Positions 2,412-63,870 of a DNA stretch of 64,000 nucleotides are shown here, piece after piece. Each line of letters starts with the position of its first letter. The first letter of the stretch is position 1. The stretch lies in contig OZ024741.1 of assembly GCA_964016885.1 (NCBI GenBank), positions 69,564,001 through 69,628,000 on the forward strand, in the 5' to 3' direction. The stretch comes from Eledone cirrhosa (taxonomy: Eukaryota). Below the pieces are notes generated by a model. It made no database searches. It had not been told where the DNA came from and saw nothing but the letters and a program-made list of their open reading frames with translations. The position numbers and the translations under genes are program-made.

Positions 2412-3084
2412 TATATCAGTTAGTGTTGATATACCATATAATATATGCAATATATATCAGTTAGTGCTAACATACTATGTAATATATGCAATATGTACGT
2501 CAATACTCATCTTTTTCCATTTCTTAGAGGGTTCTAAACCCCACTATCAGGCTAATTTTCTTTAGACAAAATATGGCGAAAGCTTCTATTTCTAACTCAA
2601 TTTCCAACTTCACTCGTCTTCAAAATAAAAATGCTTGCTTTGATATCAATTAACATCAACTTACATAAACAACTCCAAATTTACTCTCTCTGTGTTACTC
2701 TACATAATTTGCAACCTTGCTTCACATCTTCACTTTTTTCAGTGATAAAAAACAAACCAATATTCCGTATGTATATTTTTTTTTAAATCTTACAATAATA
2801 CATATGCATGGGTTGCATCAGTATACAAGGGTCAGCTGAAAATTAGTCAGTGAAAAGAGTCAGAGTTTAACCATTAAAAAAATGTGCACAGTATTACTTC
2901 ATTGTGTATGTGTATATGTATAGTCAACAAAGAAATACAATACAGGAGAAGAATATATGCAATAAAGGTATTTTGGTTTAACACTTCATTGGAAGATATA
3001 TATATATGTAAGTTTATCCTGGGTCAATCGGGAGTAACCACAGTAAACAGTTCTAACCCTGTAGAAACCATTTATATATGTGAT

Positions 3085-3422
3085 GGAGGCACATGGCTTA
3101 GTGGTTAGAGCATTGGTCTTGCAATCGAAGGGTTGTGAGTTCAATTCTCAGACCGGGTGATGTGTTGTTTCCTTGAGCAAGACACTTTATTTCATATTGC
3201 TCCAGTTTACTCAGCTGTAGAAATGAGATGATAGGGACTGGGGTCCATATCATTCCACTGTAAAGTGGTCGTGGAGGTGCCACGGAAAAAAACCACCCAG
3301 CACTCACTGTAATGAGGTTGGTGTTAGGAAGGACATCCAGCTGTAGAAATCAAGCCAGAATCAGTTCCCGACCCACCCTTGCAAGCAGGGAAAAGCGGAC
3401 GTAAAATGATGATGATGATGAT
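3085..3422 (+). mobile_element. tRNA-derived CORE-type SINE with an RTE-like 3' tail
   Basis: A box TGGCTTAGTGG, B box GAGTTCAATTC, CORE-like CCTTGAGCAAGACACTT...CTCAGCTGTAGAAATG, then GTTAGGAAGG..CATCCAGC and a (GAT)n tail. Confidence 0.8.
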
Positions 3423-4334
3423 CTATATATATATATGTATAAGGAAAATTATTTTTAAAAAAGGGTTTGAAAAGTGCACCTGGTATCTATATATATATAG
3501 AGAGAGAGATTTCTTTATATATATATAAAGGACCTTTATAACATGTACAAAAATTGATGTTAGTACATCAATCTTTGTACATGTTATAAGGATCCTTCAC
3601 ATATATATATATACCAGGTGTGCTTTTCAAACCCTCTTTTTAAATCATTTTCCTTATATAACATGATCTGTATAGAACGTTTTCTAATGTTCACACTTTT
3701 TTCATTATATATATATATATATATAAAGATGATACACATCTTTTTCCATTCAGTGGGTTTCTATGCCTTGTTATTAGACTATATTATCTAGTCAAATGTT
3801 ACGGCAAAGCCTTCTATTTCAATTTTCAAACTTCACCTGCTGCTTTCAAAACATACTGCAACACACACACATACTGTAGATGTGGTTGGTGTTAGGAAGG
3901 TCATCCAGCTGTAAAAATCCCAACCAAAATACAGTTCCATCTGAGTAAGGTATGGTGTGGCCAGACATGTCTCATGATTGATATGGGCGACCCATCTAAT
4001 CCATGCAAGCATGGAAAAATAGATGTTATATAGTGATGGTGATATATATATGTATAGCTGAATTTTGTTTAGTTCATCCATAAATTTTTCAGAAGCAAGA
4101 GAGAGAGAGAGATTAACACATCCTCATTATAGTAGCAGTATATACACAGATACATATATATATATATATATATATACTTACACCTACAGAGATGCATTTA
4201 TATTTATGTAAATATGTACACACACACACATAGATAGGCACAAACACATAAATATATTTTTGCACCTCCATTGCAGCAATGTCTGGACAGTATGTCCAGA
4301 AGGTTCTACATGGCATCAATTTTTTCATCTTCCA

Positions 4335-16854: not shown

Positions 16855-17175
16855 CATTTTTCATTTCATTTCATTTTACGTCCGCCTTTTCCCTGCTTGC
16901 AAGGGTGGGACGGGAACTGATTTGGGCTTGATTTCTACAGTTGGATGCCCTTCCTAACACCAATCTCATTTTACAGTGAGTGTTGGGTGCTTTTTTTTGC
17001 TGTGGCACCATATGGACCCCAGTCCCTATCATCTCATTTTTACAGCTGAGTAAACTGGAGCAATATGAAATAAAGTGTCTTGCTCAAGGAAACAACACAT
17101 CACCCGGTCTGAGAATTGAACTCACAACCTTTCGATTGCAAGGCCAATGCTCTAACCATTAAGCCATGTGCCTCC
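16855..17175 (-). mobile_element. CORE-type SINE in a GAPDH intron
   Basis: Reverse complement of the 3085-3422 family. Confidence 0.8.
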
Positions 17176-18871: not shown

Positions 18872-19756
18872 TTTATATGCATGTAAATAATGGTTTCTAG
18901 TATAGGCACAAGGCCAACAATTTTGGGGAAAGAGAAAAATCGATTAAATCGTCCCCATAAGGATGAAAGGCAAATTCGAACCAAGAAGGTAAAGGGCCGT
19001 AACTATGTCCTGAAACATGTTGCCCGACAATTTGCCGATACTGCTAATCCCCTACCCTTATGTATGAAAATAATGACATTGAAGTTTATGTCTTTTGTGA
19101 TTTTCATCTTGGATTCATTTTCCTATTCTTTAATGGCTTGGGTATTTTCTTGATTATTATTATTTTGGGTTTTAAGTTGTGTTGTACGAACTAACTTCCC
19201 GGTGCATGGCATCACGTCATCTAGGTAGATAGTTTAAGGGTTTAAAGTCGAGAGATGAGAGAAACTGGAGCATGCCCTTTTACATTACTAGGATTTTTTC
19301 AACACGCTGATGTGTATGTATATATGTATGAGCGTGTGTGTATGTGCATATGCATACGTTTATATGTATGAGTATATAAATATAAACGCGCAAACACAGG
19401 CACTCTCACAGACATACATTCACACAAATACACATATACTCACACAAACACATACACATTGAATGACGGACGGAAGTCGCTCAAATTTATATATAGATGG
19501 AGTTATAATCGCTGCAGATATAATAACTTTATTATATAGAAACTATGTAATATGACAGCTTCAGCTTGATAACGCTTGTCTTCCCCATTTGATGGCTGTT
19601 GCAGTCAGGTTCAGTATGCCGAGTGTGGGAAGGTGGGTGGTCCACATTCAGTTTGCCGAATTTGGAATGTGGGTTGTGGGTTGGTTTAGCAGGAGTCATG
19701 AGTGCAAGTTGGTGATTAGTTTATGATGTTTGCTAAGTGTTTGTGGACTGATTTAC

Positions 19757-19797
<41 letters not shown>

Positions 19798-19802
<5 letters not shown>

Positions 19803-21327
19803 TATTTATTATTGCCCTTCAGGCTATAACAGAGGAGTTCAAGACCGGCTGCCCATGGGAACTCCTATACGCAGATGATCTAACGCTCATAGCTGAATCA
19901 ATGACCGAACTAGAGAAGAAATTCCAAACATGGAAGCACGGCCTAGAATCAAAAGGCCTTAAAATTAACCTGGCTAAGACTAAAGTTCTAGTTTGTAGGA
20001 AAGAAAATAAGGCGGCGGTCCCATCTGGGAAATGGCCATGCTCAGTGTGTAGGAAAGGCGTAGGTAGAAACTCCATTTTGTGTCCCAAATGCAAAGTATG
20101 GGTGCATAAAAGATGTAGTGGGATCACAGGTAAGCTAACTAAGAATATAGATTTTACATGTGGCCAGTGCTCAGGTGCAATAAGTAGCAGCAAGTGCCCA
20201 CAAAATACTAGCTCATTCCATTGCACAGATGGTTCTATAGAAATAGTGGACAGCTTCCGTTACCTGGGTGACAAAATCAGCAGTGGGGGAGGGTGCTCTG
20301 AAAGTACAGTAGCTAGAGTCAGAACTGGTTGGAAAAAGTTCAGAGAGCTTATACCACTATTAGCCGCTAGAGGGTTCTCCCTAAAAATGAAAGGCAGGTT
20401 ATACGATGCCTGCATACGAACAGCAATGCTGCATGGCAGTGAGACCTGGGCATTGTGTGCAGAGGATATACGCAGACTAGAGAGGAACGAAGCTTGCATG
20501 CTCCGCTGGATGTGCAATAGTAATATACGTGAACGGCAAAGCATAAACGAACTAAGGAAAAAATTAGAAATAAGAGGGATCAGATGTTTACTCGAGAGAA
20601 GGCTACGTTGGTACGGACACGTGATGCGCATGAAAGACGACAGCTGTATAACAAAGTGCAGGGCAATAAAGATAGACGGTAGCCACGGAGTAGGCAGACC
20701 CAGAAAAACATGGGACGAGCTGATAAATTCCGACCTCACACGCTTACACCTCTCCAAGACAATGTCACTGGACCGAGACCTTTGGCGGTGCTCAGTAATA
20801 GAGAAGACCTGCCTTACCTAAATACAAAGTAAAAACCTACTACAGTCAGTAGGCATCTCTATCAAAACACACCCCCGTCCCACCACCTCCACCCCATCCA
20901 CACCGCCCCTTTCAATGTAAAGTTATGTTGGTCCCACAACATCCAGGCCGAAACAAATGAGATCGTGTAGGTGTCACGACAAAAAAAAACACACAGTCTA
21001 CGCTGTAAATGTGGCCGTGTAGGCAACACGGTAAAAACCTCCCAGCCCCACACTGTAAATGTGGTTGGTGTTAGGAAGGGCATCCAGCTGTAGAAAACCC
21101 GCCAGACAGTCCACGCTGTAATGTGGCCGTGTAGGCAACACGGTAAAAACCTCCCAGCCCCACACTGTAAATGTGGTTGGTGTTAGGAAGGGCATCCAAC
21201 TGTAGAAAACCCGCCAGACAGTCCTATGCGAGCAAGACAACCACTCTTGCCTCAAGTGGGAAAACCCCCGTCCAAACCCATGCAAGCGTGGAACACGGAC
21301 GCTAAACCTGATGATGATGATGATGAT
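19798..21327 (+). mobile_element. 5'-truncated RTE-clade LINE with a PHD finger in the RT, antisense in GAPDH intron 6
   Basis: ORF has LLYADD, KINLAKTK, FRYLG, LHGSETW, RRLRWYGHV and GRPRKTW. The 3' UTR has a ~115-bp tandem duplication and a (GAT)n tail. Confidence 0.93.
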
Positions 21328-28245: not shown

Positions 28246-29820
28246 GTAATAATAATAATGAAATTATTGTGTACAGTGCTCAGATGCACTACAACTCATC
28301 AAAGGTGCATTTATAGTACATAGAGTAATGTTCAAATGTCAGGGAAGTGAACTGTGTATGAGTCATGATATACATGTGTGTATGTGTATGGAGTGGGGAT
28401 ATCAGGTGTAGTGTTGGCGAATCTCAGAAAGCATGGAGGTTTTAAAAAATGCAGTGCCTCGGCAGCTAACAACTGATGCAGGTAGTTTATTCCATGCTTC
28501 AGCAGCTTTGAGGGGGGAAAAAATGTTTCCGAAAGTCATGGGAGCTGTGCTGTTTTCTGACTTTGTAGGCATGTCCACGGGTGCTAGACACACGGAATTC
28601 AAAAAGGTGCTCAGGGTTGTTGGAAAGATGGTTAACAATCTTGTGGGTGTCTACCAAGTCAGTTGCCAGACGTCAGAGCTTTAATGAATCCATGCCCAGG
28701 GAAGCAAGGTGTTCAGAGTATGGTAGATGCCTGATGGAGGGTATTCGCTTGGTTGCTCATCTCTAAACAGTTTCCAAGTTTCAATGTTCTGAGCAAGATA
28801 GGGGTTCCAGACTGGTGATGCAAATTCTAAGTGTGGCCACACCATAGCTATATACAGCTTTAAATAGATAGCTGGAGAGCAGCTGACAAAGATCTTGCTG
28901 AGTGATGTCAAGACACCCTCGGCCTTCTTGACAATTTTAGAGATGTGCTTTGTCCAACTCAAAATCGCTGCAGACAGTAATGCTCAGGTCACATTCACAA
29001 GGAGACTTCTTGATTTTAGTGTTGCGGAGGAAGTATGTGGGTGCAGGGTTTTCCTCCCAAAATGCATGATGCTACACTTGTCCACAACCAGCTTGAATTG
29101 CTAGTCCGTGATCCATTGCTGCATTGTGTCCAGGTCTAATTGCAGGAAAGATCTATAGTGTTCAGGATCTGTCCTTTTTATCTCAAGGTAGAGCTTGATG
29201 TTATCTGCATATTTCAGCCCTGTGGCATTCTTTAAGTTGCCATCTATGCAACAAACAAAAAACGACCAAGAACAGATCCATGTGGTACACCAGATGACAT
29301 CTCATACGGTGAAGAATGCTGTCCTAGAACCGTAACTACCACTTTTCGACTGAGAATGAGGGACTCAACCAGTTAAACAGATTATCTTTCACATCCATTG
29401 CAGAGAGTTTTGCCTCTTTTTCTTTTGTGTGGCACAGAATTAAAAGCTTTAGCAAAGTCAAAGTAAACAACATCCACCCATGATCCACCATCAATGATCC
29501 AGGTGATGTCTTCGAGAAACTTGATAAATTTGTCACAGCAGCTGGAGTTAGGGATAAATCCAAATTGCAAGGGCTGGATAAGGCTGTGAGAATTCCAGAA
29601 GTTCCAGAGTGTTTCTCTGACACAGGATTCCATCAGTTTGGCAATGCAGCTAGTAAGACTGACTGGACGATAGTTGACAGGCAACATGTGGTCACCTTTT
29701 TTGAACAGAGGAATGACACTGGCAGTTTTCCATTGTTCTGGTGAAGCACCGTTGTTAAGACAGAATTGAAAGAAGAGTGAAAGTTGGTGCAGAATAAAGT
29801 ACCCACCACGTCTGAGAAGC
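28246..29820 (-). mobile_element. Decayed 5'-truncated CR1-clade LINE
   Basis: WKTASVIPLFKKGD, NYRPVSLTS, QFGF, DVVYFDFAKAF, SGVP, KYADN and PHLEFASPVWNPY across frameshifts. (ATT)n tail near 28250. Confidence 0.88.
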
Positions 29821-29898
29821 ATTAAAGGGTTAAATCCTATACAATGACGGAGGGAGGTATATAAACTAGTAAATGAAGAAATTAAAATAGTAGCTTAC

Positions 29899-33200: not shown

Positions 33201-34844
33201 TAATCAAATATGAGTGTACAACTGTTCCATGCAACTCAAAGATAGTTGGACAAATTTACTTAAAGCGAAACCTGGAAGTGAAAAACTCATCATACCAGCA
33301 GAAAATAATGCATGGGTACATATCTCACAAGCCAGAGGATACCAACAGCATTTAAAGGAAAAGTAGTTTCTGGACTTGTGACAAATACATCACATCCCAC
33401 CGGGAACAGGAAATAGCTGCTAAATACTAAATAAAATGAGAGAGATAATGATATCTCTAGATCCCAACATTGTGATATAAAATATTGATTGTGGAAGGTA
33501 TCATTTGAATCATCTGCATTGACAGCATGCAATATTTTGCTGTCTGATGGTCCTAAAGAAAACTGTGAGCACATGAATGGTTTATAAAAGCAGTGCAAAC
33601 CATGCACAGAATAGCTGTCAGCAAAGTGAAAGTTGGCAATAAACTTAATAAGGAATTCTGGTCGATGTTTATCAAGGTTCAGTTCTCAGCCTCTTCTGTT
33701 CATTAGTTTTCCAGGTTATAACAGAGTTTAAGACTAGTTGTCTGCAGGAATTCCTATATACTGATGAGCTAGTACTACTAGCTGAATTGATAGGGTTTAG
33801 ACAAGAAACTCCAGATATGTAAACAAAACTTATAATCAGAGTAAATTTAGTGAAAAGTAGAATCATAGTAAATAAAACGACAGGCCCTTGACACCATAAG
33901 AAAATGGTCATGCTAAATAAGCAGAAAAGGAGTAAAGAGAACCTCTATACAGTGTAGTCAGAGTAAACATGAGATGTAGTTAGGGCCAGATTTAGACCTT
34001 GGGGGACTTGGGACACTTCAGGTTTGGCAGGCTCCTCATACCAAAAAAATTAGAATACACACCAAACCCCCAATTTTACATATCAAAGTCAGCTGACGCA
34101 AGTAATTGAAATTGAAACATTATGCATACAGGTATTAAATTCCAAAAATCTCCACTCTCCACACAGATTATCATAGTTCGAGACCAGACATATCGGAGTG
34201 ACCTCATCTTGTTCAAACATTACATATTTGGTATAGTTTCTATGGCTGGATGCCCATCCTAACATAACCACTTTAGTGTGTTTATTGGGTGCATTACTTT
34301 TGCAATACCAGCACAACCACTTCACACAGTGGCATCAAATGCTTTTTATTAGAATACTGTTCTGATAATAACCTGCTGTCTCTAAAGTTCAGAAAATTTG
34401 ATGAATTTTGTCACAGTAAGGACATTAAATACTTTTTGTTAAAAATATAGTTCTCGTTGACAAAGGCAATTGCTCAATTTCCCCCCTCATTAAATCTAGA
34501 CCTGGGTGAAGTAGTATCACAAGCAAACTAACAGAGAAAATACTTTTTGTGTATGGCATAATGAGATACAATCTCTTCAATCCAAGGAAGGCTTTGTAGA
34601 TGTTGTTTGATAGTTTGTTACCTAGATGACCGAATTAACCATATTGGAGGATGCTCTAAAAGAATAGTGGGCTCTCTCCAAACAAAGAGTAGATTGTGTG
34701 GTGCCTGTGTACATAATGCAATACTGCATAATAAAAGAAGTATATATCTGTATTTATATATAATGTAATTTGATCAACAACAAAAAATCTCTGAGAGAAG
34801 AGTTGACTAATAAAGATCATGCAGCCAACTATCAACAAATTATC

Positions 34845-36172
34845 GTTTAACGTCTGTGGGCCGAGTGCAAACTATCCTTGAAAGGTCGAGCGGAGGTGGC
34901 AAACACTTTTATAGCATCCGTCATCTACAACCGCTTGACCGTCGTGCCTTGTTCAGCCAAAACGCTCACCAAAATGGAGCGCGCGCTCTTCCAATTCCTT
35001 TGGAAGAAATGGGCTCCTTTCGTGAGAAGATCCATCTGCTGCCAACACCCTTCAAACGGAGGGCCGGGAATGCCGTGGCTGGCAACGCGCAAACACACGT
35101 TCAGGCTGCAGCACCTCCACGTATTCCTCACCGGACAACCAGTGTGGGCTCCGTTCGTGAGGCGAGCCTTCCCATGACTCGTCTCGCTGACCAAGCTGCA
35201 ATCCTGGGTCAAGCAAAGACCGAGGAAAATGGGCGACTGGCACATCGAATGTGCTCAGGCGCTCACAGTCCTCTGGCAAACGGACCCGGCGATTAGTGGA
35301 GACTCCACTTCGTCATTCTATAGAGGGTTAGTCCGCAGCAGGTGCGACGATGCGCTCGGAGATATTCTTGGCGTAGAGGAGGACGAACTGGCCAGTCTGT
35401 TCGGTAGGACCTTCCGCCCGGGACCGATGGACAACTTCCAAAAGTCCCGGGCCTGACAGTGCTACCGAGGAGCTCTACCAGTTCGAGACAAGCTCTACAG
35501 ACACGGGCGCCCAGGCAGGGACCCTTCAATGTCCGAGATGCGTGCGCGATGAGGAAACCGTCGCGCACGCATTCGTACACTGCCCGGGCGTTACCGATCT
35601 GTGGGGCTATGTAGAACGACTATTGTCGCGGGTGCGACCAATCCAGTTGACCACCGAGTCCATTGTCATAATCAAACCGCCACCCTCCTTCAAAAACGAA
35701 GGAGAGGCAGTTTTCCTGTGTTATGGCTATGGTGAAAGAGGTTATATGGTGGACGAGGTTAAAAGGGCTGAGGTCAGACACCTTTCTCTCCAGTGAACAA
35801 CCGATTCGTTTTTTCAAATATCATTTTGGAAGAAGAATCAGGATGGAGAGAGAGGTGCTGTACCCCAGCAAATTTTATGAAAGGTGAGTGAATGTGGCAA
35901 AGATGGCCCGAGTGGTTGGGCCTTCTCTCTATATAAGCCTGTAGGTTGAGGAAAAAGAAGAGAGGAAGGGAGTACTCACACTTGGTGCTCCTGGAGATGA
36001 GGGTTGTACATTTTTTCGGGGTGTGTACAACCCCTATGTAACGCCTCCCCCCTATTGGGGATTTCAATTGTTATTTGTTATTTTATTAATAGTTTTATTT
36101 TCATATACCTGTATTTAAACTCTCCATTTGTATTTGTCCCCTTCTTTTGTGCCCTTATGGCTAATAAAGAAA
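34845..36172 (+). mobile_element. Decayed L1/Tx1-clade LINE 3' fragment
   Basis: GC-rich island encoding SLKGRAEVANTFIASVIY, FQFLWK, GGPGMP and a C-terminal CPRC...ETVAHAFVHCP zinc knuckle. AATAAA at the end. Confidence 0.85.
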
Positions 36173-42907: not shown

Positions 42908-44885
42908 AGATATGAAGACAGGCAAGGCAGCTGGGCCTTCGGAGATAGTTGCTGAAAGTATCTGGAACGGTGGGACACACTATGGTCACCCGGATAGTAA
43001 ACCAAGTCATACAGAACGGGGTCATACCAAATGACTGGCGTAGCAACATCATCATTAACTGCTACAAGGGTAAAGGAGATGCCCTAGATAGGGGAAACTA
43101 TAGAGGCATTAAATTAATTGACCAGGTCATGAAGGTTACAGAAAAAGTTATAGCGCAACTAATCAGAGAACGAATTGATCTAGACGAAATGCAGTTTGGG
43201 TTTGTGTCAGGTAAAAGTACCACAGACGCCCTTTTCCTTGTACGACAACTACAGGAGAAGTACCTAGATAAAAGTAAACCCCTATACTTAGCTTTTGTTG
43301 ACTTGGAGAAAGCATTTGGCAGAGTCCCCCGCACCACTATATGGTGGGCGCTTAACAAACTAGGGGTTGATGAATGGCTTGTGAGAGCTATACAAGCCAT
43401 GTATAAAGAAACAGTCAGCAAGGTTAGAATTAACAACGAATATAGTGAAGAATTTAGCATAAAAGTTGGGCTCTGTCCTTAGCCCCCTCCTATTTATTAT
43501 TTCCCTTCAGGCTATAACAGAGGAGTTCAAGACCGGCTGCCCATGGGAACTTCTATATGCAGATGATCTAATGTTCATAGCTGAATCGATGGCTGAACTA
43601 GAGAAGAAATTCCAAACATGGAAGCATGGCCTAGAATCAAAAGGCCTTAAAGTTAACTTGTCTAAAGTTAACTATGTAGGAAGGAAAATAGGACACAGGT
43701 CCGCTCTGGGAAATGGCCATGCTCAGTGTGTAGGAAAGGAGCAGGCATAAATTCCATTTTATGTCCCAAATGCAAAGTATGGATGCATAAAAGATGTATT
43801 GGGATCACAGGTAAGCTATCTAAGAAAGTAGATTTTATATGTGGCCGGTGTTCAGGTGCAATAAGTAGCAAGTGCCCACAGGATACTAGCTCCTTCTATT
43901 GCCCAGATGGCTCTATAGAAATAGTGGACACCTTCCATTACCTGGGTGACAAAATCAGCAGTGGTGGAGAGTGCTCAGAAAGTACAGTAGCCAGAGTTGG
44001 AACAGGATGGAAAAAGTTCAGAGAGCTTATACCACTATTGGCAGCTAAAGGTTTCTCTCTAAAACATGAAAGGCAGACTGTATGATGCCTGCATACGAAC
44101 AGCTGTTACATGGCAGTGAGACATGGGTATTGTGTGCAGAGGATCTACGCAGACTGGAGAGGAACGAAGCATGCATGCTCCGGTGGATGTGTAATAGTAA
44201 TAAACATGAACAGCAAAGCATAAATGAACCAAGTGAGAAATTAGGTATAAGAGGGATCAGATGCTGTTTACTCAAGAGAATACTACGTTGGTATGGTCAC
44301 GTGATGCGCATGAAAGACGACAGCTGTATAAAAAAGTGAAGGGCGATCAAAATTGACGGAAGTTACGGAGTAAGCAGACCCAGAAAAACCTGGGACGATT
44401 TGATAAATTCCGACCTTACACACTTACACCTCTCTAAGACAATGTCACTGGACCGAGATTTTTGGCGCTACACAGTAATACAGAAAACCCACCTTGCCTA
44501 AGTACAAAGTGAAACCTACAGTCAGTAGGTACTTCTTAATCAAATATACACCCCATCCCTTTACCCCAACTCCGCCACCCCCACCAACACCACCCCTTTC
44601 TCTGTAAAGTTATCTTGGTATCACAACATCCAGTCCTAAATAAATGAGGTTGTGTAGGTGTCACGACAAAAACACACACACAGTCCACGCTGTAATATGG
44701 CCGAGGTAACACGGTAAAAACCTCCCAGTCCACACTGTAAACGTGGTTGGTGTTAGGAAGGGCATCCAGCCGTAGAAAACCTGCCAGACAGTCCTATACG
44801 AGCAAGACGACCAATCTTGCCTCAAGTGGGACCATTCCCGTCTAAACCCATGCTAGACATTAAACGATGATGATGATGATGATGA
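42908..44885 (+). mobile_element. Frameshifted RTE-clade LINE with a PHD finger (same family as 19798-21327)
   Basis: YKGKGDA, NYRGIKL, QFGF, AFVDLEKAF, LLYADD, PHD and HGSETW, with several frameshifts and a (GAT)n tail. Confidence 0.93.
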
Positions 44886-48149: not shown

Positions 48150-48954
48150 CTATCTATCTATCTAAGGCGGGTAAAATTCCCGAGATCCATAGACGAGTTC
48201 TCTCCAGCGGTCTCTGTCCCTCATTATCGCTGCCATGTCTTGCGTCTCCAACAGACCAGTGTCTGACCATAGGGCATCAACATACGTCAACCTTGGTCTT
48301 CCTCTTCCAATGTGTCCATGTAGGGGCTCCCAAAGGAGCACTGAGTGCAATGTCAACTCTGGATGTCGGTGAGCATGTCCAGCTAACCTCAGTCTCCTCT
48401 GTGTCACTTTTGAGCTGACTTTTGGGATGCTCCCATACAGCTCTGAGTTTTTCATCCTCAGTGTATACTGATTAATGTTCAGAACCATCCTCAGCATTCT
48501 CGTGTAGCACCCATCCACCATCTGAGCGAGTTTCTTGGTCAGTGTCCAAGTCTCAGACCCATACAGCAGCACAGACTCCACTACAGCAATGAAGAGGCGG
48601 ATTTTCAGGTCTCTACGAAGGTCCGACTTCCACACCGATCTCAAGCTGTGGCACGCCGCCCAGGCCTTGCTCTTCCTCTCAACCACATCATCTTCCGTTA
48701 GAGCAGGAGAGTTAGGGCGAAAAAGGTATCGGATGCTGAATTTGCCGACGACATAGTTTTGGTGACAAATACAGTGAAAGAGGCAGAGGATTTGATGCGG
48801 GAGGTTGAGACTGTGTCGATGAGTGTGGGGCTGAGAATGAATGAGACTAAAACAAAATATCTGGTAGAGAATGTTGAGAAGCCAGAGGGGATCACTAATG
48901 TAGGCGGGAAGCCACTGGAATTGGTTGAGGACTTCTTGTATTTGGGAGCAAAGA
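48150..48954 (-). mobile_element. RTE-superfamily LINE insertion with a 5' inversion and 13-bp TSD
   Basis: Minus segment encodes LLYGSETWTLT...RRLRLAGH...GRPRLTY with a (TAGA)n tail. Plus segment encodes FADD...FLYLGAKI. TSD is TTGACACCTCTAT. Confidence 0.9.
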
Positions 48955-49423
48955 TTGACACCTCTATAGTCATTTTATATAGAGCATCTCCTATACATGC
49001 GTCCTATTTCACCCGAGATTTTCAGAGCATCTTCTTTACATGTATCCTATTTCACCGGAGATTTTCCCTTCCTTTATATTCTTATTAGCCTATATCAGCA
49101 AATCAAAGTAGTTTAGGCAGTTATTCATTTTAGCAGGGGTATTTTTTTGTACTCTTAAATTTTTAGGTTATCAATGACAATAGAACTTTTTAGAAGAAAA
49201 GGAATACATCCTGTTGTATTCATACACACTCACACAAGAGAAATTTCACCTGTACCTATGAAATCTGATAAGATTTTTTTTTTTTAAGCCCTATTTTTAA
49301 GTTGTGTTTTTTAATGATAATCTTTAATTGGCTTTGAAATATCAGATGACATGCAGAGAACCTTGTCAGTAACTCTACCTAACCCCTTCCAAACAACAGC
49401 AAATGTTTACCAGATTAGTGAGA

Positions 49424-49749
49424 ATCATCATCATCATCATTTCATTTTACGTCCACTTTTTTCCTGCTTGCAAGGGTGGGGACGGGAACTGATTCTGGCT
49501 TGATTTCTACAGCTGGATGCCCTTCCTAACACCAACCTCATTTACAGTGAGTGGCACCTCCACGACCACTTTGCAGCGGAATGATAGAGACCCCAGTCCC
49601 TATCATCTCATTTCTACAGCTGAGTAAACTGGAGCAATGTGAAATAAAGTGTCTTGCTCAAGGAAACAACACATCACCCGGTCTGAGGATTGAACTCACA
49701 ACCTTTCGATTGCAAGCCCAATGCTCTAACCACTAAGCCATGTGCCTCC
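49424..49749 (-). mobile_element. CORE-type SINE
   Basis: Reverse complement of the 3085-3422 family. Confidence 0.8.
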
Positions 49750-55030: not shown

Positions 55031-55247
55031 TCCATATATATATATATATAGCAAATATATATATATATATATATAGGAACCAGAATTAGCCGTCGAAACG
55101 GCTTGAGCTCAGCCGTCGGGGTCTTACTGGTTCCTATTACCCACTCTACTACCCTAAGTATTGAGTACTTTGGTGCGTTATGGTCCACCTGGTTCCTTAC
55201 CACATTTCCTTCGTTATATATATATATATATATATATATATAGCAAA

Positions 55248-55281
<34 letters not shown>

Positions 55282-55510
55282 GTATATATATATATAAATA
55301 TATATATTATGGAGTGCTGTTGGCTTTTCGCTGCGGTGTTTTCTATACCTTTCATTTATATATATATATATATGGCAAGTAAGTATGTTTTGAAACAGTG
55401 AGCGAGTTTGAAATTAGAAAATATATAGCTTTCACCGTATTTTTAACTAAAGGAATTTTAGCTTGATAACGGGGTTTAGAACCCTCAGATAAATGGAAAA
55501 AGATGAGTAT

Positions 55511-55581
55511 TGATGTACATGGGAGTCGAACCCACATCTGTGGTTATCGCGACCACTGTGCTACCATTACACCAACACATC
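55511..55581 (-). ncRNA. tRNA-like cloverleaf, second copy
   Basis: Reverse complement of 56008-56078. One U-G acceptor pair is U-A in this copy. Confidence 0.75.
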
Positions 55582-56007
55582 ACCCATCTCTTTCCATTCA
55601 AATTAGAAACTACATTCTTAGCGAGTTTAAATGGCAAGTAAGTATGTTTTGAAACAGTGAGCGAGTTTGAAATTAGAAAATATATAGCTTTCACCGTATT
55701 TTTAACTAAAGGAATTTTAGCTTGATAACAGGGTTTAGAACCCTCAGATAAATGAGAAAAGATGAGTATTGACGTACATGGGAGTCGAACCCACATCTGT
55801 TCGACTCCCATGTACGTCAATACTCATCTTTTTCCATTTATCTGAGGGTTCTAAACCCTGTTATCAAGCTAAAATTCCTTTAGTTAAAAATACGGTGAAA
55901 GCTATATATTTTCTAATTTCAAACTCGCTCACTGTTTCAAAAGATACTTACTTGCCATTTAAACTCGCTAAGAATGTAGTTTCTAATTTGAATGGAAAGA
56001 GATGGGT

Positions 56008-56078
56008 GATGTGTTGGTGTAATGGTAGCACAGTGGTCGCGATAACCACAGATGTGGGTTCGACTCCCATGTACGTCA
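56008..56078 (+). ncRNA. tRNA-like cloverleaf, probably non-decoding
   Basis: Acceptor GATGTGT/GTACGTC, D arm GTGT/GCAC, anticodon arm GTGGT/ACCAC with loop CGCGATA, T arm GTGGG(TTCGACT)CCCAT. Lacks U33 and purine 37. Confidence 0.75.
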
Positions 56079-56251
56079 ATACTCATCTTTTTCCATTTAT
56101 CTGAGGGTTCTAAACCCCGTTATCAAGCTAAAATTCCTTTAGTTAAAAATACGGTGAAAGCTATATATATATATATATAAAGAAAAAGGGATGAAATCGA
56201 AAATGCAACTGAAGTCTTATTTTTTTTAAAAATATATATATTTATTTGGTT

Positions 56252-56289
56252 CCTTTACCGGTTTCGCAGTTCTTCTGCTTTTCAAAAGG
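56252..56289 (-). ncRNA. Inverted copy of the U3-A8 hammerhead
   Basis: Exact reverse complement of 61909-61946. Confidence 0.8.
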
Positions 56290-57315
56290 TGAGTTGAGAT
56301 GGAGGGTCTGTGGTTTTTCTCACATCTGGTTGGTCTCTAAATGTTACTTGTTTTATATGGAAAAAGTGGCTCGAAAACCAGGTTTTTCGAGAAGTAATTT
56401 GATTGGTTTGTCAATAATTATAATAAATTTCGCGCCAGTTCGCGTTACAATAGTTCTTCAAATAAGAGGGGGGGGGGGGGGGGTTGTCGCAGGTTGTTTT
56501 TTCATATATGAGTGTTTGAATTTCTTTTTACTTGAAAAAATGAGGCTCACGAAGGCTTTTTTTTGGTTGGTTATAAATGAAATTTGGCTGTCACGTGAAC
56601 AAGTTTTCATTACATTTTTGCGCCCTTATTTGGAAAACTATTCTGTAGTCTTTATAGTGAATGTTATGACAATGGAGAGATAGTGGTCAAGGGAAAAGGG
56701 ATTGGAAGAAATGTTCTGGTTCAGTGAATATGGCCAGCTGTCAGAGTTCAGGTGTCAGAGTTCAGATTTTCTATTGAGACTGAAGATATGTGTTTATTTG
56801 TTTGCTTGTGTGTTTGTATATGTGTGTGTGTGTGTGTATATGTGTGTATTGGAAGATGATTCTATTAGTAGAGATGGGGGAGGGAGTTGTGTGTTATGTG
56901 TGTGTGTGCGAGTATGTTAGATAGAGAGAATATATATTTTGTGTGTGTGTATATATATATGTGTGTAGGAAAGTGGTTCTATTAGTAGAAATGGGGAGGG
57001 TGTTGTAGGTGTGGGGGTTGTTATGTGTGTGTATGGGTGTTATGTGTGTGGGAGTATGGTTAGCATGTTAAGATGAAGAGAATATATATATATATATATA
57101 TTGTGTGTGTGTGTATGTGTGTGTGTAGGAAAATGATTCCTTTAGTAGGAATATTTTTGAATGAACATATTTTCCTGACTTTTTCGTGTTTGCTATTGTA
57201 TTGCCAGTGCAAACGTATGTTTAAGGTTTATTTAGTTCGGGTTTTTATTTTCTAAAGTAGAAGGTGTTATGTGTGTGTGTGTGTATGTCATATTGTGGTG
57301 TTGACATAATGTATA

Positions 57316-57723
57316 TTAAACCTTATTTAATGTTGGTCTATATTTTTGAATAAACATATTTTCCTTATTTATTCGCATTTGTTCTGTTGTATTGTTAGCG
57401 CAAAGGTAAAATGGGAAGACTTGGAATTTGGGTGTCTTATTACTTGCGCAAATGTCTAGATATGCACTTAGTGGTATCTGTCTCGTGGTTGGATCTCGTA
57501 ATTGTTGGCGATGAACTGTCATTCTGTTTCTGAGTGTGAGTTTAGTTTGTCCTATATAATCTTCATTGCATCCTTTACATTTAATGGCATAAATTAGATT
57601 TTTTGATGAGCAAGTGAAGTGATTTTTTACAGTAAAATTTTGTCCTGATTTAAATGTATACGTGTTGCCTTCAATGAGGTGAGTGCAGGTTCCACAATTA
57701 GAGCGACCACATTTTTTGATACT
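57316..57723 (-). other. Inverted duplicate of the PLE GIY-YIG coding region
   Basis: Translation is identical to the C-terminal part of ORF 60369..60884. Confidence 0.9.
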
Positions 57724-57907
57724 AATCAACATATGGACTTAAAAGCTCACAGCCCGCAAATTCGCCCTTTGGAATCTCCTAAAAAATAATGGCAAGGCAG
57801 ACATATATGAAAAGTGGCTAAACTCTACCCCAATCATCCTCCCCAAAAAACTCCAAATAAAACCCATCCCGAATGAACCAGAAAACCAACAAAGACTTAG
57901 GGAAAAG

Positions 57908-58648
57908 ATGGCATTGGAAAAATTTAAAACAGAAATAGAACTGTTGCGATTAAGAGCCAACTCCAACGAAGAAAAATTCAAGTCACTCGACCAACAGATG
58001 GACACAGAAATCTCAAAGCACTCTGAAGGCCTACTCTACAAAAAAACCCTAAAACTTTGGAAAGAAAACTGTGAGGATGAAGAACTCACATCCCTCCAGC
58101 GATGGGAAAAAAACGCCACCTGGTTCAACAACTACGAAATGGACTTCAAAAATGAACAACATACAGGTAACCCATTTTTAAAACAAACTAAAACTCACAC
58201 ACCACATGCACAACAAATAACAAAAAAAGTAACAAAACGTCCAACATACCCCCAGCAAAACTATAACGATAATCCCAGAAACCATAGACAAAACTATAAC
58301 CCTACTAACAAAAACCAAAGATCCCCGAACACAAGGCAGGACCTGATCCGCAGATCACAACCCACACAAAACCTATTCCAAAACCGTAGACCCCTGCCCA
58401 CACAGAGCCTGTTCCAAAACCATAGATCCCAACCCACACAAAGGAACCAAATCTACAACCCGGACTATCAACAAACCGAACCTCAATACGTCCGAAACTT
58501 CTATACAAGACCACACAACAACAGGGGAAATACCATTAGATATAATAATACCAATGAAAAAACATTCCAGAAAAATCATTTTTTAGACCAAGGCTACAGG
58601 ACTCACGACACCCGGTGGCACAAACCGATTTTGAAAAACCGAAAATAA
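57908..58648 (+). CDS. PLE upstream ORF1 (coiled-coil-like N half, N/Q/R/P-rich C half)
   Basis: 246-aa ORF whose frame is open from about 57742. It overlaps the RT frame by about 90 nt. Confidence 0.6.
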   Translation: MALEKFKTEIELLRLRANSNEEKFKSLDQQMDTEISKHSEGLLYKKTLKLWKENCEDEELTSLQRWEKNATWFNNYEMDFKNEQHTGNPFLKQTKTHTPHAQQITKKVTKRPTYPQQNYNDNPRNHRQNYNPTNKNQRSPNTRQDLIRRSQPTQNLFQNRRPLPTQSLFQNHRSQPTQRNQIYNPDYQQTEPQYVRNFYTRPHNNRGNTIRYNNTNEKTFQKNHFLDQGYRTHDTRWHKPILKNRK

Positions 58649-60884
58649 TTAACATTTCAAATACAAACCTCTCAGCCCAACAAGTAAAAATTCTCTCCAA
58701 AGGTCTGAAATTCACACCAACACCACAATATCCTAACCCCAACGAGATAAATGACGATATCTCACACTTCTGTAGAAAATTACGTCTCACAGAGGAATTC
58801 TTTGACAAGGAGAATAACGACGAATCAATTGTACGGAATAAAAGCAGCTACAACCCAACAAAAGGTAGAAACAGAGTTCTGGACAAATTTTGTGACCACA
58901 TAGCTACCTTCCCATACCATGAACTACCGCAACCTAAACCCAAACCCAACACAAGTCGAAGGGAATGGGAGATTATCCATGAACTAAAAAACAATCCGGA
59001 CATTGTAATTAAGGATGCGGACAAGGGAAGTACTGTTGTCATTATGGAGGCTGAAAAATATAAAAATTCTATGTTCTCTCTCTTACAAAATGCTAATTAC
59101 TATGAAAGAGTAAAAAACTACCAGCAATCAAAAATAATGACCAAATTAAACACACTGATTTATCGATACCAGTAAGACCTAACTAAAAAGGAACGCGATT
59201 ATTTAACAAATTTTGAATACAAAACCAGCAACCTTTACAGACTTCCGAAGATCCACAAATGTAAAATAATCAACGATGCCTGTAAACAATCCACCTCAGC
59301 CTGCGTGAACACACAATACCCCACAGACCTTAAATTAAGACCAATTGTAGCGGGCCCACAATGTGAAACACACAGATTGAGCAACTTTATAGACATACTA
59401 CTGAAACCAATACTGAAACACATACCAAGCCTTGTAAGAGACGATCTGGACCTCTTAAACCACCTCCCCAAACATGTCAACAACGACACTATTATTGTGT
59501 CTTTCGATGTAGTGAATCTCTACACAACGATCCCACACCAATACGGACTAGAAGCAATAGGATTCTGGCTAGAGAAATATCCCAATGAGATACCTGACAG
59601 AATAGAAAAAAGCTTCATCACCGAGGGATTAAAATTCATCCTACAGAACAACTTTTTTGATTTCGATGGCAATACTTACAAGCAAATATCGGGGACTGCG
59701 ATGGGCACAAAAGCCGCTCCAACTTATGCCAACTTAGTCATGGCATACTTAGAAGTCCAGATATATGAACAGTCCAAATCAAAATACGGATTGAACTTCC
59801 ACAAATATTTATCAGAGAATTGGAAACGCTACTTGGATGATTGCCTCATTCTTTGGTCCCACACACTCGACCAACTGAAGGATTTCAAAAACTTAATAAA
59901 CGGCATCAATAACCACATCCAATTCACAATGGAATACAGCCAAGATCAACTCCCATTTCTGGACATCTTAATCACAAAAAAGACACAAATATCGAAACTG
60001 ACATACACTACAAACCAACAGATTCCAAACAATATCTGCTATTCACCTCCAACCATCCAAAGCACACGAAGACGAACATTCCTTTTAACCTAGCAAGAAG
60101 AATTTGCACAATTGTCTCCAATTATGAAACGCGAAATAAAAGACTTCAAGAATTAAAGGAAATTCTACTTGAGAGAGAGTACCCACTATTACTAATAAAT
60201 AATGGAATAGAAAGGGCTAAAGCAATAGGCATTGATGAATTACGGAAACAGAAACAAATTCAAGGTACGTCCAATATTCTATCATATATCTCAACACACA
60301 ACCCAAGAAATGCGGAAGCTTACAACACTATTCACAATAACATCCCACTACTAAAACAAAACCCAAGAATGAAAAAAGCCCTTGAAACACACAAAATAAT
60401 CAAAAGCAAAAGACAACTAAAATCACTGAAAACATTACTCACCAATGCCAAATTACCTACCACAAACCCACAACCAAGTATCAAAAAATGTGGTCGCTCT
60501 AATTGTGGAACCTGCACTCACCTCATTGAAGGCAACACGTATACATTTAAATCAGGACAAAATTTTACTGTAAAAAATCACTTCACTTGCTCATCAAAAA
60601 ATCTAATTTATGCCATTAAATGTAAAGGATGCAATGAAGATTATATAGGACAAACTAAACTCACACTCAGAAACAGAATGACAGTTCATCGCCAACAATT
60701 ACGAGATCCAACCACGAGACAGATACCACTAAGTGCATATCTAGACATTTGCGCAAGTAATAAGACACCCAAATTCCAAGTCTTCCCATTTTACCTTTGC
60801 GCTAACAATACAACAGAACAAATGCGAATAAATAAGGAAAATATGTTTATTCAAAAATATAGACCAACATTAAATAAGGTTTAA
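58579..60884 (+). pseudogene. PLE reverse transcriptase plus GIY-YIG endonuclease, disrupted
   Basis: LSKGLKF, ADKG, LPKIHK, RPIV, DVVNLYT, GTAMG, RYLDD, LPFLD, CGRSNCGTC and NLIYAIKCKGCNEDYIGQT. In-frame TAA at 59173-59175 and a 1-nt frameshift in an A-run near 59976-59981. Confidence 0.9.
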
Positions 60885-61908
60885 TATACATTATGTCAAC
60901 ACCACAATATGACATACACACACACACATAAAACCTTCTACTTTAGAAAATAAAAACCCGAACTAAATAAACCTTAAACATACGTTTGCACTGGCAATAC
61001 AATAGCAAACACGAAAAAGTCAGGAAAATATGTTCATTCAAAAATATTCCTACTAAAGGAATCATTTTCCTACACACACACATACACACACACACAATAT
61101 ATATATATATATATATTCTCTTCATCTTAACATGCTAACCATACTCCCACACACATAACACCCATACACACACATAACAACCCCCACACCTACAACACCC
61201 TCCCCATTTCTACTAATAGAACCACTTTCCTACACACATATATATATACACACACACAAAATATATATTCTCTCTATCTAACATACTCGCACACACACAC
61301 ATAATACACAACTCCCTCCCCCATCTCTACTAATAGAATCATCTTCCAATACACACATATACACACACACACACACATATACAAACACACAAGCACACAA
61401 ATAAACACATATCTTCAGTCTCAATAGAAAATCTGAACTCTGACACCTGAACTCTGACAGCTGGCCATATTCACTGAACCAGAACATTTCTCCCAATCCC
61501 TTTTCCCTTGACCACTATCTCTCCATTGTCATAACATTCACTATAAAGACTACAGAATAGTTTTCCAAATAAGGGCGCAAAAATGTAATGAAAACTTGTT
61601 CACGTGACAGCCAAATTTCATTTATAACCAACCAAAAAAAAGCCTTCGTGAGCCTCATTTTTTCAAGTAAAAAGAAATTCAAACACTCATATATGAAAAA
61701 ACAACCTGTGACAACCCCCCCTCCCCCCTCTCTTATTTGAAGAACTATTGTAACGCGAACTGGCGCGAAATTTATTATAATTATTGACAAACCAATCAAA
61801 TTACTTCTCGAAAAACCTGGTTTTCGAGCCACTTTTTCCATATAAAACAAGTAACATTTAGAGACCAACCAGATGTGAGAAAAACCACAGACCCTCCATC
61901 TCAACTCA

Positions 61909-61946
61909 CCTTTTGAAAAGCAGAAGAACTGCGAAACCGGTAAAGG
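61909..61946 (+). ncRNA. Minimal type I hammerhead with U3-A8 covariation
   Basis: CCTT-TTGAAAA-GCAG(AAGAA)CTGC-GAAA-CCGG-TA^AAGG. Confidence 0.8.
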
Positions 61947-62077
61947 AACCAAATAAATATATATATTTTTAAAAAAAATAAGACTTCAGTTGCATTTTCG
62001 ATTTCATCCCTTTTTCTTTATACTTCCACTCGTGTAGGACACCTCGGTTATTTTTCATTTTGTAAAAAAAACCTCAC

Positions 62078-62136
<59 letters not shown>

Positions 62137-62357
62137 TTAAAATAACAGATTAAAGTTTAAGCAAAGAATCGCTGCTTTCACCCTTAACGGGATCCCGTCT
62201 TTCCACAAACGAGCGTATTTTCAACGACCATTCCACTTATTACAATGAAGCTCTTGCTCGAAGTGGATTTGTCGATAAGGTAGCACATACAGAGTACGAA
62301 AATAGACCTAGAAGAAATAGATCCCGTCGCATTTGTTGGTATAACCCACCATATAAT

Positions 62358-63008
62358 ATGGAGGTGGCCACACCATTAGCTAAGATCTTTCTTTCCCTTA
62401 TTACGAAGCATTTTCCCCCTACACATAAATATAGTAACATTTTTAATAGAAATACTATTAAAATTTCTTACTCTACGACTCCTAACCTTGCACATAACAT
62501 CACAGCTTCAAATTTAGCTAAACTACCTAGCCGTGGGAACACATGCAACCCTGTAGTTAGTACTAACTGTAATTGTAGGAATCGGGTTGATTGCCCCCTA
62601 TCCGGGAAATGCCTCTCTAGTAACATTGTCCACAAATGTAACGTTGTAACACCCACGTCCCGTAGGGCCTACATAGGGTTAACCGCCAATAGATTCAAGC
62701 AGCGTCTTTACACGCATACACATTCTTTTCGTTACCCTCTAAGAAGGAATATGACGTCACTTTCAGCTTATACCTGGAGTCTAAAAGACAACCACACCCA
62801 ATATAAGTTACACTGGGAGATCCTAGCTAAGGCTAGATCGTATAACGGAAATAAAAGACCATGTGACCTCTGCGCCGCTGAGGCCCTGGAAATACTCTAC
62901 GCCACAGACCACATCTTAAACCAAAAATCTGAGGCAATTTCGGCTTGTAAACATAAATTGCACAACACTTTCCTGTATTACAGCGTCACGTTATACCTTA
63001 ATGGATAG
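62358..63008 (+). CDS. Naiad-type PLE C-terminal region with Cys-rich linker and GIY-YIG endonuclease (truncated)
   Basis: 216-aa ORF. The frame extends upstream to the truncation point (YNEALARSGF...WYNPPY). Confidence 0.75.
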   Translation: MEVATPLAKIFLSLITKHFPPTHKYSNIFNRNTIKISYSTTPNLAHNITASNLAKLPSRGNTCNPVVSTNCNCRNRVDCPLSGKCLSSNIVHKCNVVTPTSRRAYIGLTANRFKQRLYTHTHSFRYPLRRNMTSLSAYTWSLKDNHTQYKLHWEILAKARSYNGNKRPCDLCAAEALEILYATDHILNQKSEAISACKHKLHNTFLYYSVTLYLNG

Positions 63009-63170
63009 TACGATCTATACGTGGATATTTTACGTCTTGATGTGAGAGCTAAGTATATGTTTTGTTTATACCATTACTTATTTGCATAGCGAACGTTTCC
63101 ACGAACCAAAGTATCGTCTTCCTGTCTTCCTCCGGTTGCAACGTTTTTTGAAATATCCACTTCTGCGTTT

Positions 63171-63246
63171 ACAGATTGACTTTGTTAGTTTCAGAAGATC
63201 CCGTTAAGGGTGAAAGCAGCGATTCTTTGCTTAAACTTTAATCTGT
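63171..63246 (+). ncRNA. Type I hammerhead with variant core CAGAAGA
   Basis: ACAGATTGA..AGTTT-CAGAAGA-TCCC(GTTAA)GGGT-GAAA-GCAG...TTGC-TT^AAACT-TTAATCTGT. Confidence 0.65.
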
Positions 63247-63347
63247 TATTTTAATAAATATTTGCTCTACGGTTCTCATATATTTGATATATATTTATCC
63301 TTATCGAGCCCTCTTTGGATTTTAGTCTTGAAATTTATTATTATTAC

Positions 63348-63387
<40 letters not shown>

Positions 63388-63411
63388 GCAAACCTCTCTC
63401 TCTATATATAT

Positions 63412-63870
63412 AGTAATAATAATAAATTTGAAGACTAAAATCCAAAGAGGGCTCAATAAGGATAAATATATATCAAATATATAAGAACCCTAGAGCAAAT
63501 ATTTATTAAAATAACAAATTAAAGTTTAAGCAAAGAATCGCTGCTTTCACCCTTAACGGGATCTTCTGAAACTAAAAGAATCAATCTGTGAACGCAGAAG
63601 CAAATATTTCGAAAAACGTTGCAACCGAAGGAAAACAGGAAGACGATACTTTGGTTCGTGGAGACGTTCCCTGGCAATAAACGGAAATAAAGCGAAGCTA
63701 ATACGTCATTATGTGGATCGATGAGAACAATTACACACAAAGAGAAAACCACATTTATGGTATAAATAAAGTCGTAGACTAATATTCTATTTAGGAAACC
63801 GAATGATTCTCGGCTTCAGAGTTAAGAATAAATAAATTACAGGGGTTATTGAAATCAACAATAATTAAAT
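63412..63870 (-). mobile_element. Second, diverged Naiad-type 3' end/pLTR, tail-to-tail with the first
   Basis: 63412-63670 is an imperfect reverse complement of 63090-63348 and includes the hammerhead at 63514-63589. Confidence 0.75.

Follow-up and report, generated by a model that had tools for sequence, protein, structure and literature searches.

The 259-bp non-coding tandem repeat described here, from a stretch of 64,000 nucleotides of the Eledone cirrhosa genome (the window), is a new form of non-autonomous Penelope-like element (PLE), a SINE-like counterpart of the retrozymes. We consider it reasonably likely that this element is copied by a PLE reverse transcriptase (RT)/endonuclease into (AT)n, with a tRNA module in its RNA that is methylated at A58.

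The first-pass annotation of the window had described a 284-bp mobile unit, arranged as a partial tandem plus an inversion inside (TA)n and next to a PLE. Repeat analysis of the window gave a period of 259 bp instead (families D11 and D12) and the 284-bp unit size was rejected, while arm mapping bore out the layout. With unit position 1 placed at window position 55910, the locus (L001) consists, in order, of (TA)n, an inverted arm (55372–55800, minus strand; unit 139–259, 1–259 and 1–49, or 1.7 units), a head-to-head inversion junction at 55799–55800 where 5′ ends at unit 139 and 149 meet with a 2-nt overlap, a direct arm (55799–56168, plus strand; unit 149–259 and 1–259, or 1.4 units) and an (AT)n tract held in common with a PLE that starts at 56176, the 259-bp element itself ending at about 56168. 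The sense 3′ end of the inverted arm lies at start site S2 (unit 45–49) and the 3′ end of the direct arm at start site S1 (unit 253–259), each followed by (AT)n. The element has no open reading frame of at least 120 aa, except for one low-complexity frame that overlaps its left edge. Two older relatives, noted previously near 2494–2640 and 3730–3860, were also recovered: one at 2493–2638 (plus strand), which runs from unit 160, immediately 3′ of A58, to near S2, and one of the oldest subfamily, C, at 3732–3857 (plus strand; unit ~170 to ~39). The (TA)n tract at this locus has gathered at least three element types, and positions 55075–55215 correspond to the end of another (TA)n-targeting repeat, with similar sequence beside L226, L227 and L299.

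Each arm contains a tRNA-like cloverleaf, at 56008–56078 (plus strand; unit 99–169) and, as the inverted copy, at 55511–55581 (minus strand). Both had been recognised from the sequence in the first-pass annotation, and both were called by ARAGORN, which assigns copies of the element as tRNA-Ser, and by Rfam RF00005, with 44.3 and 47.4 bits respectively and a gathering score of 29. The loop at 56038–56044, CGCGATA, has neither U33 nor R37, as had been read. Beyond a 3-nt bulge (56078–56080), the acceptor stem is extended by a long helix whose 5′ strand (55989–56007) and 3′ strand (56081–56099; both plus strand) pair at 19 of 19 positions with three G-U pairs, confirming the pairing first reported, against only 10–11 of 19 in four shifted registers. 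The 3′ strand contains a T5 run (56088–56092), which we take to be a would-be Pol III terminator; it lies 9 nt downstream of the tRNA module and is a T4 in subfamily B. The A box and D loop lie at 56015–56025, with loop positions that are the same in all five subfamilies considered below, and the B box and T arm, with a GUUCRA motif, at 56057–56067 (both plus strand); A58 is position 56063 (unit 154), and copies break off beside it. Folding of the 111-nt segment gave z-scores of −4.6 on the plus and −3.3 on the minus strand, with none of 200 shuffles as good on either. The minimum-free-energy folds were not exact cloverleaves, the D arm being shifted in the plus copy and the minus copy forming a rod, so that it is the covariance model and covariation, not energy alone, that support the cloverleaf call. 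A search of the doubled unit on both strands for the hammerhead core CTGAnGA found none, and no Rfam ribozyme family matched the unit at E ≤ 10, in agreement with the original reading.

The D arm had also been likened to tRNA-Gln, an ancestry that our searches did not establish: the 63 of ~552,000 candidates scored with Rfam yielded tRNA-Thr genes (70–75 bits, versus 44–47 for the cloverleaves of the element) and two repeat families, none of them close (29–43 of 71 positions), and BLAST against phage returned partial tRNA-Trp matches (best E 2e-3). Among the loci examined, L304 and L306 hold clusters of 5–7 tRNA-Thr-like genes within 3 kb, intact ones alternating with degenerate ones. A second dispersed repeat (L305–L315, e.g. 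L309:1190–2100) starts at a fixed 5′ position following TA and carries within it a near-perfect tRNA-like gene that scored 53–72 bits in the 10 copies found and mostly bears a GGC anticodon; it looks like a DNA-transposon derivative. Its loop, CYGGCAA, and its T arm match those of the oldest subfamily of the 259-bp element, a likeness at the sequence level that may reflect either shared ancestry or convergence.

Through the older relatives in the window we reached subfamilies C, B, A3, A2 and A1, from which 28, 7, 112, 36 and 54 tRNA-covering copies were taken respectively (array units counted), with median divergences from the class majority of 12.5%, 12.5%, 7%, 3.6% and 1.8%. Stem covariation, which had been proposed as a check at the outset, is present, with compensatory changes across the five subfamilies. 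Between the oldest (C) and the youngest (A1), 15 of 40 pairs are altered and none that paired breaks: five change from pair to pair on both sides (2:71 and 5:68 in the acceptor stem, 11:24 in the D stem, 27:43 and 29:41 in the anticodon stem), six change from pair to pair on one side and four pass from mismatch to pair. The structure having been drawn on A1, it is pairing in the C state, with 4 of 40 positions unpaired, that provides a fair test; 11 of the 15 altered pairs also pair in C, where 5.3–7.9 are expected (p 0.002, 0.011 and 0.068 for transition weights of 1, 2 and 4). A set of 40 copies, picked as those nearest their own class majority, gave 68 cells with changes on both sides compared to 30 ± 4 in shuffles, and 15 pairs with such a change compared to 11.8 (32 of 500 shuffles as high), counts that kinship among copies inflates; in slid-register controls on the same copies, pairing dropped to 36–56%. 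A G-A mismatch at 27:43 is present in A2 and A3, which still spread, and is repaired in A1. No difference between subfamilies is seen in the D loop, the T loop or any of the five T-stem pairs, and the D-loop and T-arm positions of the A and B boxes (a type 2 Pol III promoter) are constant in all five. The anticodon loop, on the other hand, differs at 4 of 7 bases, with C, U or G at position 33 depending on the subfamily and A, later T, at position 37; the module thus has the cloverleaf and the D/T-loop elbow bases of a functional tRNA gene but not its U33, purine 37 or stable anticodon. Since the stems covary and the D and T loops and A/B boxes are fixed while the anticodon loop drifts, the module is a tRNA mimic that does not decode but has kept its elbow and A/B boxes, and it is highly probable that the tRNA fold is under selection.

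In the 3.0-Gb assembly, a search with one unit gave 2,144 candidates at first look, 40 of them scored; neither figure is a copy number. We analysed an insertion set of 91 loci at ≥93% identity, with 150 arms; duplicates among overlapping loci were removed by comparing sequence and flanks, a step that may have dropped or double-counted a few separate insertions. In 138 of the 150 arms (AT)3 was found within 14 nt of the 3′ end; both flanks of the insertions are (AT)n, where no target-site duplication (TSD) can be read. The 91 loci include 56 head-to-head two-armed insertions and no tail-to-tail ones. Two-armed insertions end at S1 (unit 250–14) and S2 (unit 41–53), some 40–50 nt apart, in 48 of 56 cases, at S1 on both arms in two, at S2 on both in none and at another site in six. 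We attribute this pairing to the two internal start sites of a PLE RT: passages of Frangieh et al. (PMC11167929) describe a PLE protein that cuts and extends both strands of AT-rich DNA, with cDNA beginning at two internal sites of a multi-copy RNA and a 'tail' formed by the stretch between them, which here would be 55910–55958 (plus strand), between the inferred sites S1 and S2. That one arm is simply a fold-back copy of the other was rejected for those loci in which the second arm outreaches the first (e.g. L002, L029). The tRNA 5′ end (unit 98–100), as the SINE-type start, accounts for only 2 of 35 query arms, and 3′ ends lie at two sites rather than at a single LINE-type tail; the pattern of an ordinary SINE is therefore absent, as the first reading of the locus implied, and its suggestion of a non-autonomous element mobilised by PLEs is supported by the two start sites, the head-to-head arms and the (AT)n target. 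We are confident that mobilisation of the 259-bp element is of PLE type. The unit period is ~259–262 in all subfamilies, and young arms reach 2.5 units; two older arrays have 25.6 and 28.4. These arrays (L056:1805–8328 and L057:911–8086) show higher-order repeats, with a 13-bp deletion common to five units and alternating dimers, and represent a retroelement turning into a satellite, L056 keeping its PLE-type ends.

The PLE next to the element (56176–62085) encodes an RT plus, at the C terminus, a GIY-YIG domain preceded by CX4CX2C, is of Neptune/Nematis type and is frameshifted; it too is inserted head to head, with arm ends 63 nt apart (62022/62085). Its family (L073–L112), of 698–1,266 candidates with best matches 98–99% identical and many at 99–100%, has the same head-to-head arms with ends 63 nt apart and represents a candidate class of mobiliser, and the PLE families examined end in (TA)n, the same microsatellite target as that of the 259-bp element. 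The adjoining PLE had been offered as a clue to the mobiliser. The adjacency stands, but sequence kinship does not: alignments of the unit with this PLE, with its pLTR-ORF junction and with a second PLE at 62130–63700 scored at or below shuffles, and the adjacency therefore likely reflects the shared (TA)n target. Comparison of the unit with 30 of 150 scored GIY-YIG loci (1.5 kb flanks, six clusters) gave only low-complexity or 15–23-nt matches, and the sequence common to the unit and PLEs, among the loci compared, was an 8-mer at one end only. An ACTCG motif that follows both start sites resembles PLE tails and is not conserved in subfamilies B and C; as a short sequence likeness it is suggestive only. 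One PLE family matched a subfamily-B copy over 23 nt, antisense within its coding region; this match (E 0.002 against a very small database) was taken as chance. The neighbouring PLE family is itself very young, with no CTGAnGA core on the sense 3′ UTR or at the pLTR-ORF junction, and its tail has a motif complementary to the stretch just past the long end, a similar motif occurring in two other local families. The second, distinct PLE-like fragment at 62130–63700 has a 284-aa frame without a Pfam match and, around a (TA)n tract, inverted repeats of 65 and 270 nt.

Because the first searches favoured long copies, 5′ ends were studied with a query cut to the 95 nt next to the 3′ end. The young sample consisted of the best 40 matches minus the window's two and one duplicate (37 insertions, 65 arms); the older one, obtained with a separate A3 query, consisted of 30 of the best 40 matches, with 4 dropped as the query's own or duplicates and two that are possibly segmental duplicates. 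In the young sample, 38 of 65 arms have their 5′ end at unit 153–166, as do 19 of the 31 first-unit query arms (p 2e-13 versus uniform over 46–210); the corresponding figure for first-unit arms in the older sample is 13 of 21 (p 1e-9 versus uniform). Pooled, 32 of 52 arms stop at unit 153–166, flanking A58 (154). Most of these insertions are short palindromes whose centre is one of the 4-nt palindromes at 159, 162 and 164; single arms meet the target at the AT at unit 160. The furthest arms end at 155–156, or at 153 via short overlaps (2–3 nt at the junctions of L230, L337, L340 and L343, which may reach 153). An equally good palindrome that spans A58, at 151–154, served as a join in neither sample, and one symmetric join there was seen among tRNA-selected loci (L198). 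Comparable starts occur in older copies, namely the window relative at 2493 and 6 of 24 subfamily-C loci, which begin at 159–163. As a control, junctions of the neighbouring PLE showed no pile-up, with at most 3 of 32 in any 14 nt. No 4-nt palindrome exists between unit 167 and 210, and fold-back joins are thus favoured at 159–166 whatever the cause of the stop. Arms that pass one tRNA end at 123–150 of the next in 16 of 22 young arms, and not at 155–166. Both of these observations speak against arrest at m1A58. In passages bearing on this modification, m1A58 is reported to stop RT (PMC8599865) and to be installed on precursors (10.64898/2026.05.17.725798), and m1A to occur on GUUCRA motifs outside tRNAs (10.1101/202747). 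Judging from the genomic ends, RT arrest at m1A58 probably produces the pile-up of 5′ ends.

Insertions also bear on the form of the template. Subfamily-diagnostic sites are uniform within them (site 140 in 32 of 32, site 88 in 24 of 24, and site 235 in 53 of 61 multi-copy loci, with only two T/C mixes; T 92 and C 54 of 152 letters), so that a single source accounts for both arms and every repeat. Private variants comprised 281 singletons, seven present in both arms with one register covered, one mixed, three found in all registers (L011, L069 ×2) and three found in both arms in one register only (L026, L262 ×2), with L001 and L029 looking alike. The register-specific variants favour a linear multi-unit RNA, although gene conversion between inverted arms could mimic them. 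Cuts by RNase P and RNase Z, formerly proposed to define monomer ends, were not borne out, as 5′ ends lie at 153–166, in the 3′ half of the tRNA, rather than at 99 (RNase P) or 170 (RNase Z), and 3′ ends lie at the PLE-type start sites, 50–100 nt upstream of the tRNA.

These data can be set against other readings of the element. A retrozyme-like circle, in which RNase P/Z or an anticodon nuclease together with RtcB would cut the multimer once per unit and the PLE RT would copy the circle by rolling circle, agrees with the steady period across subfamilies, the near absence of mixed diagnostic variants, the three private variants common to tandem registers, the passage from arms of 2.5 units in young copies to old arrays of 25–28, and a size and tandem layout like those given for non-LTR retrozymes in passages of PMC7229834. 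Ends at the anticodon arm or variable loop in 16 of 22 long arms, and at the RNase P site (98–100) in 2 of the 8 young first-unit arms that pass A58, point the same way. Nonetheless, we judge a circle unlikely, since three other private variants are register-specific, as expected of a linear multi-unit template unless gene conversion has intervened, ends do not cluster at 170, and the long arrays carry higher-order duplications at the DNA level, so that a circle is not needed for lengthening. The same element and mobiliser could also yield the pile-up without methylation, through a cut in the T loop (tRF-3-like) or a block by protein or structure. Genomic ends cannot separate arrest from run-off, read-through copies show no clear excess of an A58 mismatch signature (1 of 113 young copies, median 0.7%; 3 of 87 older ones, 1.4%), and the palindromes at 159–167 attract joins. 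Structure alone fits poorly, however, because the long helix, the acceptor stem and the T stem are already open by the time the RT reaches 156, and the boundary at 153–156 is found in both samples, as a block at m1A58 predicts; we regard this alternative as quite improbable.

Two further readings concern the identity of the element rather than its ends. It might be a tandem repeat within an autonomous PLE that has escaped notice, in its 3′ region or pLTR, the copies observed being 5′-truncated ends of that PLE; retrozymes are reported as pLTR-derived in a portion of 10.64898/2026.07.22.740005, and the genome holds several (TA)n-targeting families of Neptune type. Yet 5′ flanks vary by locus or are the inverted arm, arrays of 25–28 units have no coding sequence at the ends inspected, and neither the GIY-YIG loci compared nor the neighbour's pLTR-ORF junction gave anything beyond the low-complexity or short matches described above, which makes this reading very improbable. 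The intact A and B boxes and the long tandem arrays at two loci would suit a satellite, an array of tRNA genes or a conventional tRNA SINE driven by LINEs. Such an identity is scarcely credible: the copies have no fixed start at the tRNA 5′ end, the tRNA is internal to most of them or missing, their 3′ ends fall at either of two sites, their arms lie head to head, the loop is non-decoding and differs by subfamily, and their Rfam scores are far from those of the tRNA-Thr genes.

In the mechanism that we favour, PLE copying of a tandem unit with a methylated tRNA module, a locus of at least two units would be transcribed, most likely by Pol III from the A/B boxes with read-through of the T4–T5, or else passively inside Pol II transcripts; with that run 9 nt past the tRNA, most Pol III transcription should end short of the start sites, and read-through is assumed. 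The RNA would then fold as a pre-tRNA-like domain on the long helix, as covariation suggests. The PLE protein would nick both strands of (TA)n and start two cDNAs from the internal sites ~40–50 nt apart, a step based on the genomic pattern shown here and, for its mechanism, on an anole PLE in vitro. On methylated RNA, arrest of both cDNAs at m1A58 would be followed by their joining at the 4-nt palindromes that lie immediately 3′ of that base; the resulting copies, short and palindromic, would have no A box and would probably be dead. On unmethylated RNA the cDNAs would run on to give arms of 1–2.5 units able to seed new sources. Growth would also occur by duplication of units at the DNA level, which is shown for some arrays. 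A58 is part of the B box and of the tRNA elbow and hence likely cannot be lost; a large number of truncated offspring would be the price of the element's promoter. We give an even chance to the fullest form of this proposal, a PLE counterpart of SINEs in which a ribozyme-free tandem unit with a true, host-modified tRNA fold hijacks a PLE RT and its copies record m1A58 truncating more than half of new insertions.

SINE heads usually lose their cloverleaf. The 259-bp element resembles tRNA-derived SINEs in being a non-autonomous retroelement with tRNA-derived A/B boxes, but differs from them in having no LINE tail or fixed 5′ end, in its tandem and inverted copies and in a cloverleaf kept by compensatory change. 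In mascRNA and menRNA, a non-decoding cloverleaf with a GUUCRA T loop lies within a longer RNA, as it would here; those are single-copy 3′-end processing signals of lncRNAs and are not mobile, whereas the 259-bp element is, and cutting by RNase P/Z is not evident from its copy ends. Animal non-LTR retrozymes are described, in passages of PMC7229834 and 10.64898/2026.07.22.740005, as non-coding tandem repeats of 170–400 bp that range from dimers to long arrays and for which mobilisation by PLEs has been proposed; each unit holds a type I hammerhead. The element is like them in its non-coding tandem units (up to 28) and its probable PLE-type mobilisation, and unlike them in that no hammerhead and, in the sequences compared, no pLTR homology was found, a tRNA mimic with A/B boxes being present instead. 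Similarly, with MRC1 and non-autonomous Chlamys, as presented in parts of PMC8557442, it shares pLTR-type insertions, a multicopy head-to-tail arrangement, a tail, an inverted 5′-truncated arm and a microsatellite target. According to the same source, non-autonomous PLEs generally, though not universally, share 3′ sequence with an autonomous family; for our element such sequence was not found among the loci compared, and the tRNA module that it contains has no mention in those parts of PMC8557442. Helenus/TRIMp3, in the relevant text of PMC10886601, is likewise a non-autonomous, non-LINE retroelement with a tRNA-derived Pol III promoter, but has LTRs, a PBS, a PPT and 4–5-bp TSDs and uses LTR elements, in contrast to the PLE ends found here. 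We found no description of a tRNA-bearing PLE parasite in the open literature, including the portions of PMC13282606 and PMC6685494 that treat related elements, nor any genomic record of m1A58 arrest in insertions; the family may be present but unclassified in Repbase, Dfam or the older octopus SINE literature.

As a putative natural trans-substrate of 259 nt with two mapped start sites, the element offers a minimal template for the study of RNA recognition and initiation by PLEs. It would extend to the PLE class, without a ribozyme, the SINE principle of a tRNA-derived promoter that parasitises a retroelement, and a ribozyme-free PLE parasite bears on the role of the hammerhead in retrozymes. 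If the stop at A58 is due to m1A, insertion ends would report the germline RNA modification of past generations and tRNA methylation would become a candidate brake on a mobile element. In annotation, such families would inflate tRNA-gene counts, given their assignment by ARAGORN as tRNA-Ser. The window also holds common tRNA-derived SINE head copies (28–29 bits) at 3094–3151, 17109–17166 and 49683–49740, which are unrelated to the 259-bp element; a 13-nt match of the unit to this SINE (E 0.55) is absent from subfamily C and was taken as chance. Fragments of LINE-type RT frames, identified by eye from translations, lie at 19727–20821, 29382–29894, 34814–35796, 42949–44085 and 48162–49088.
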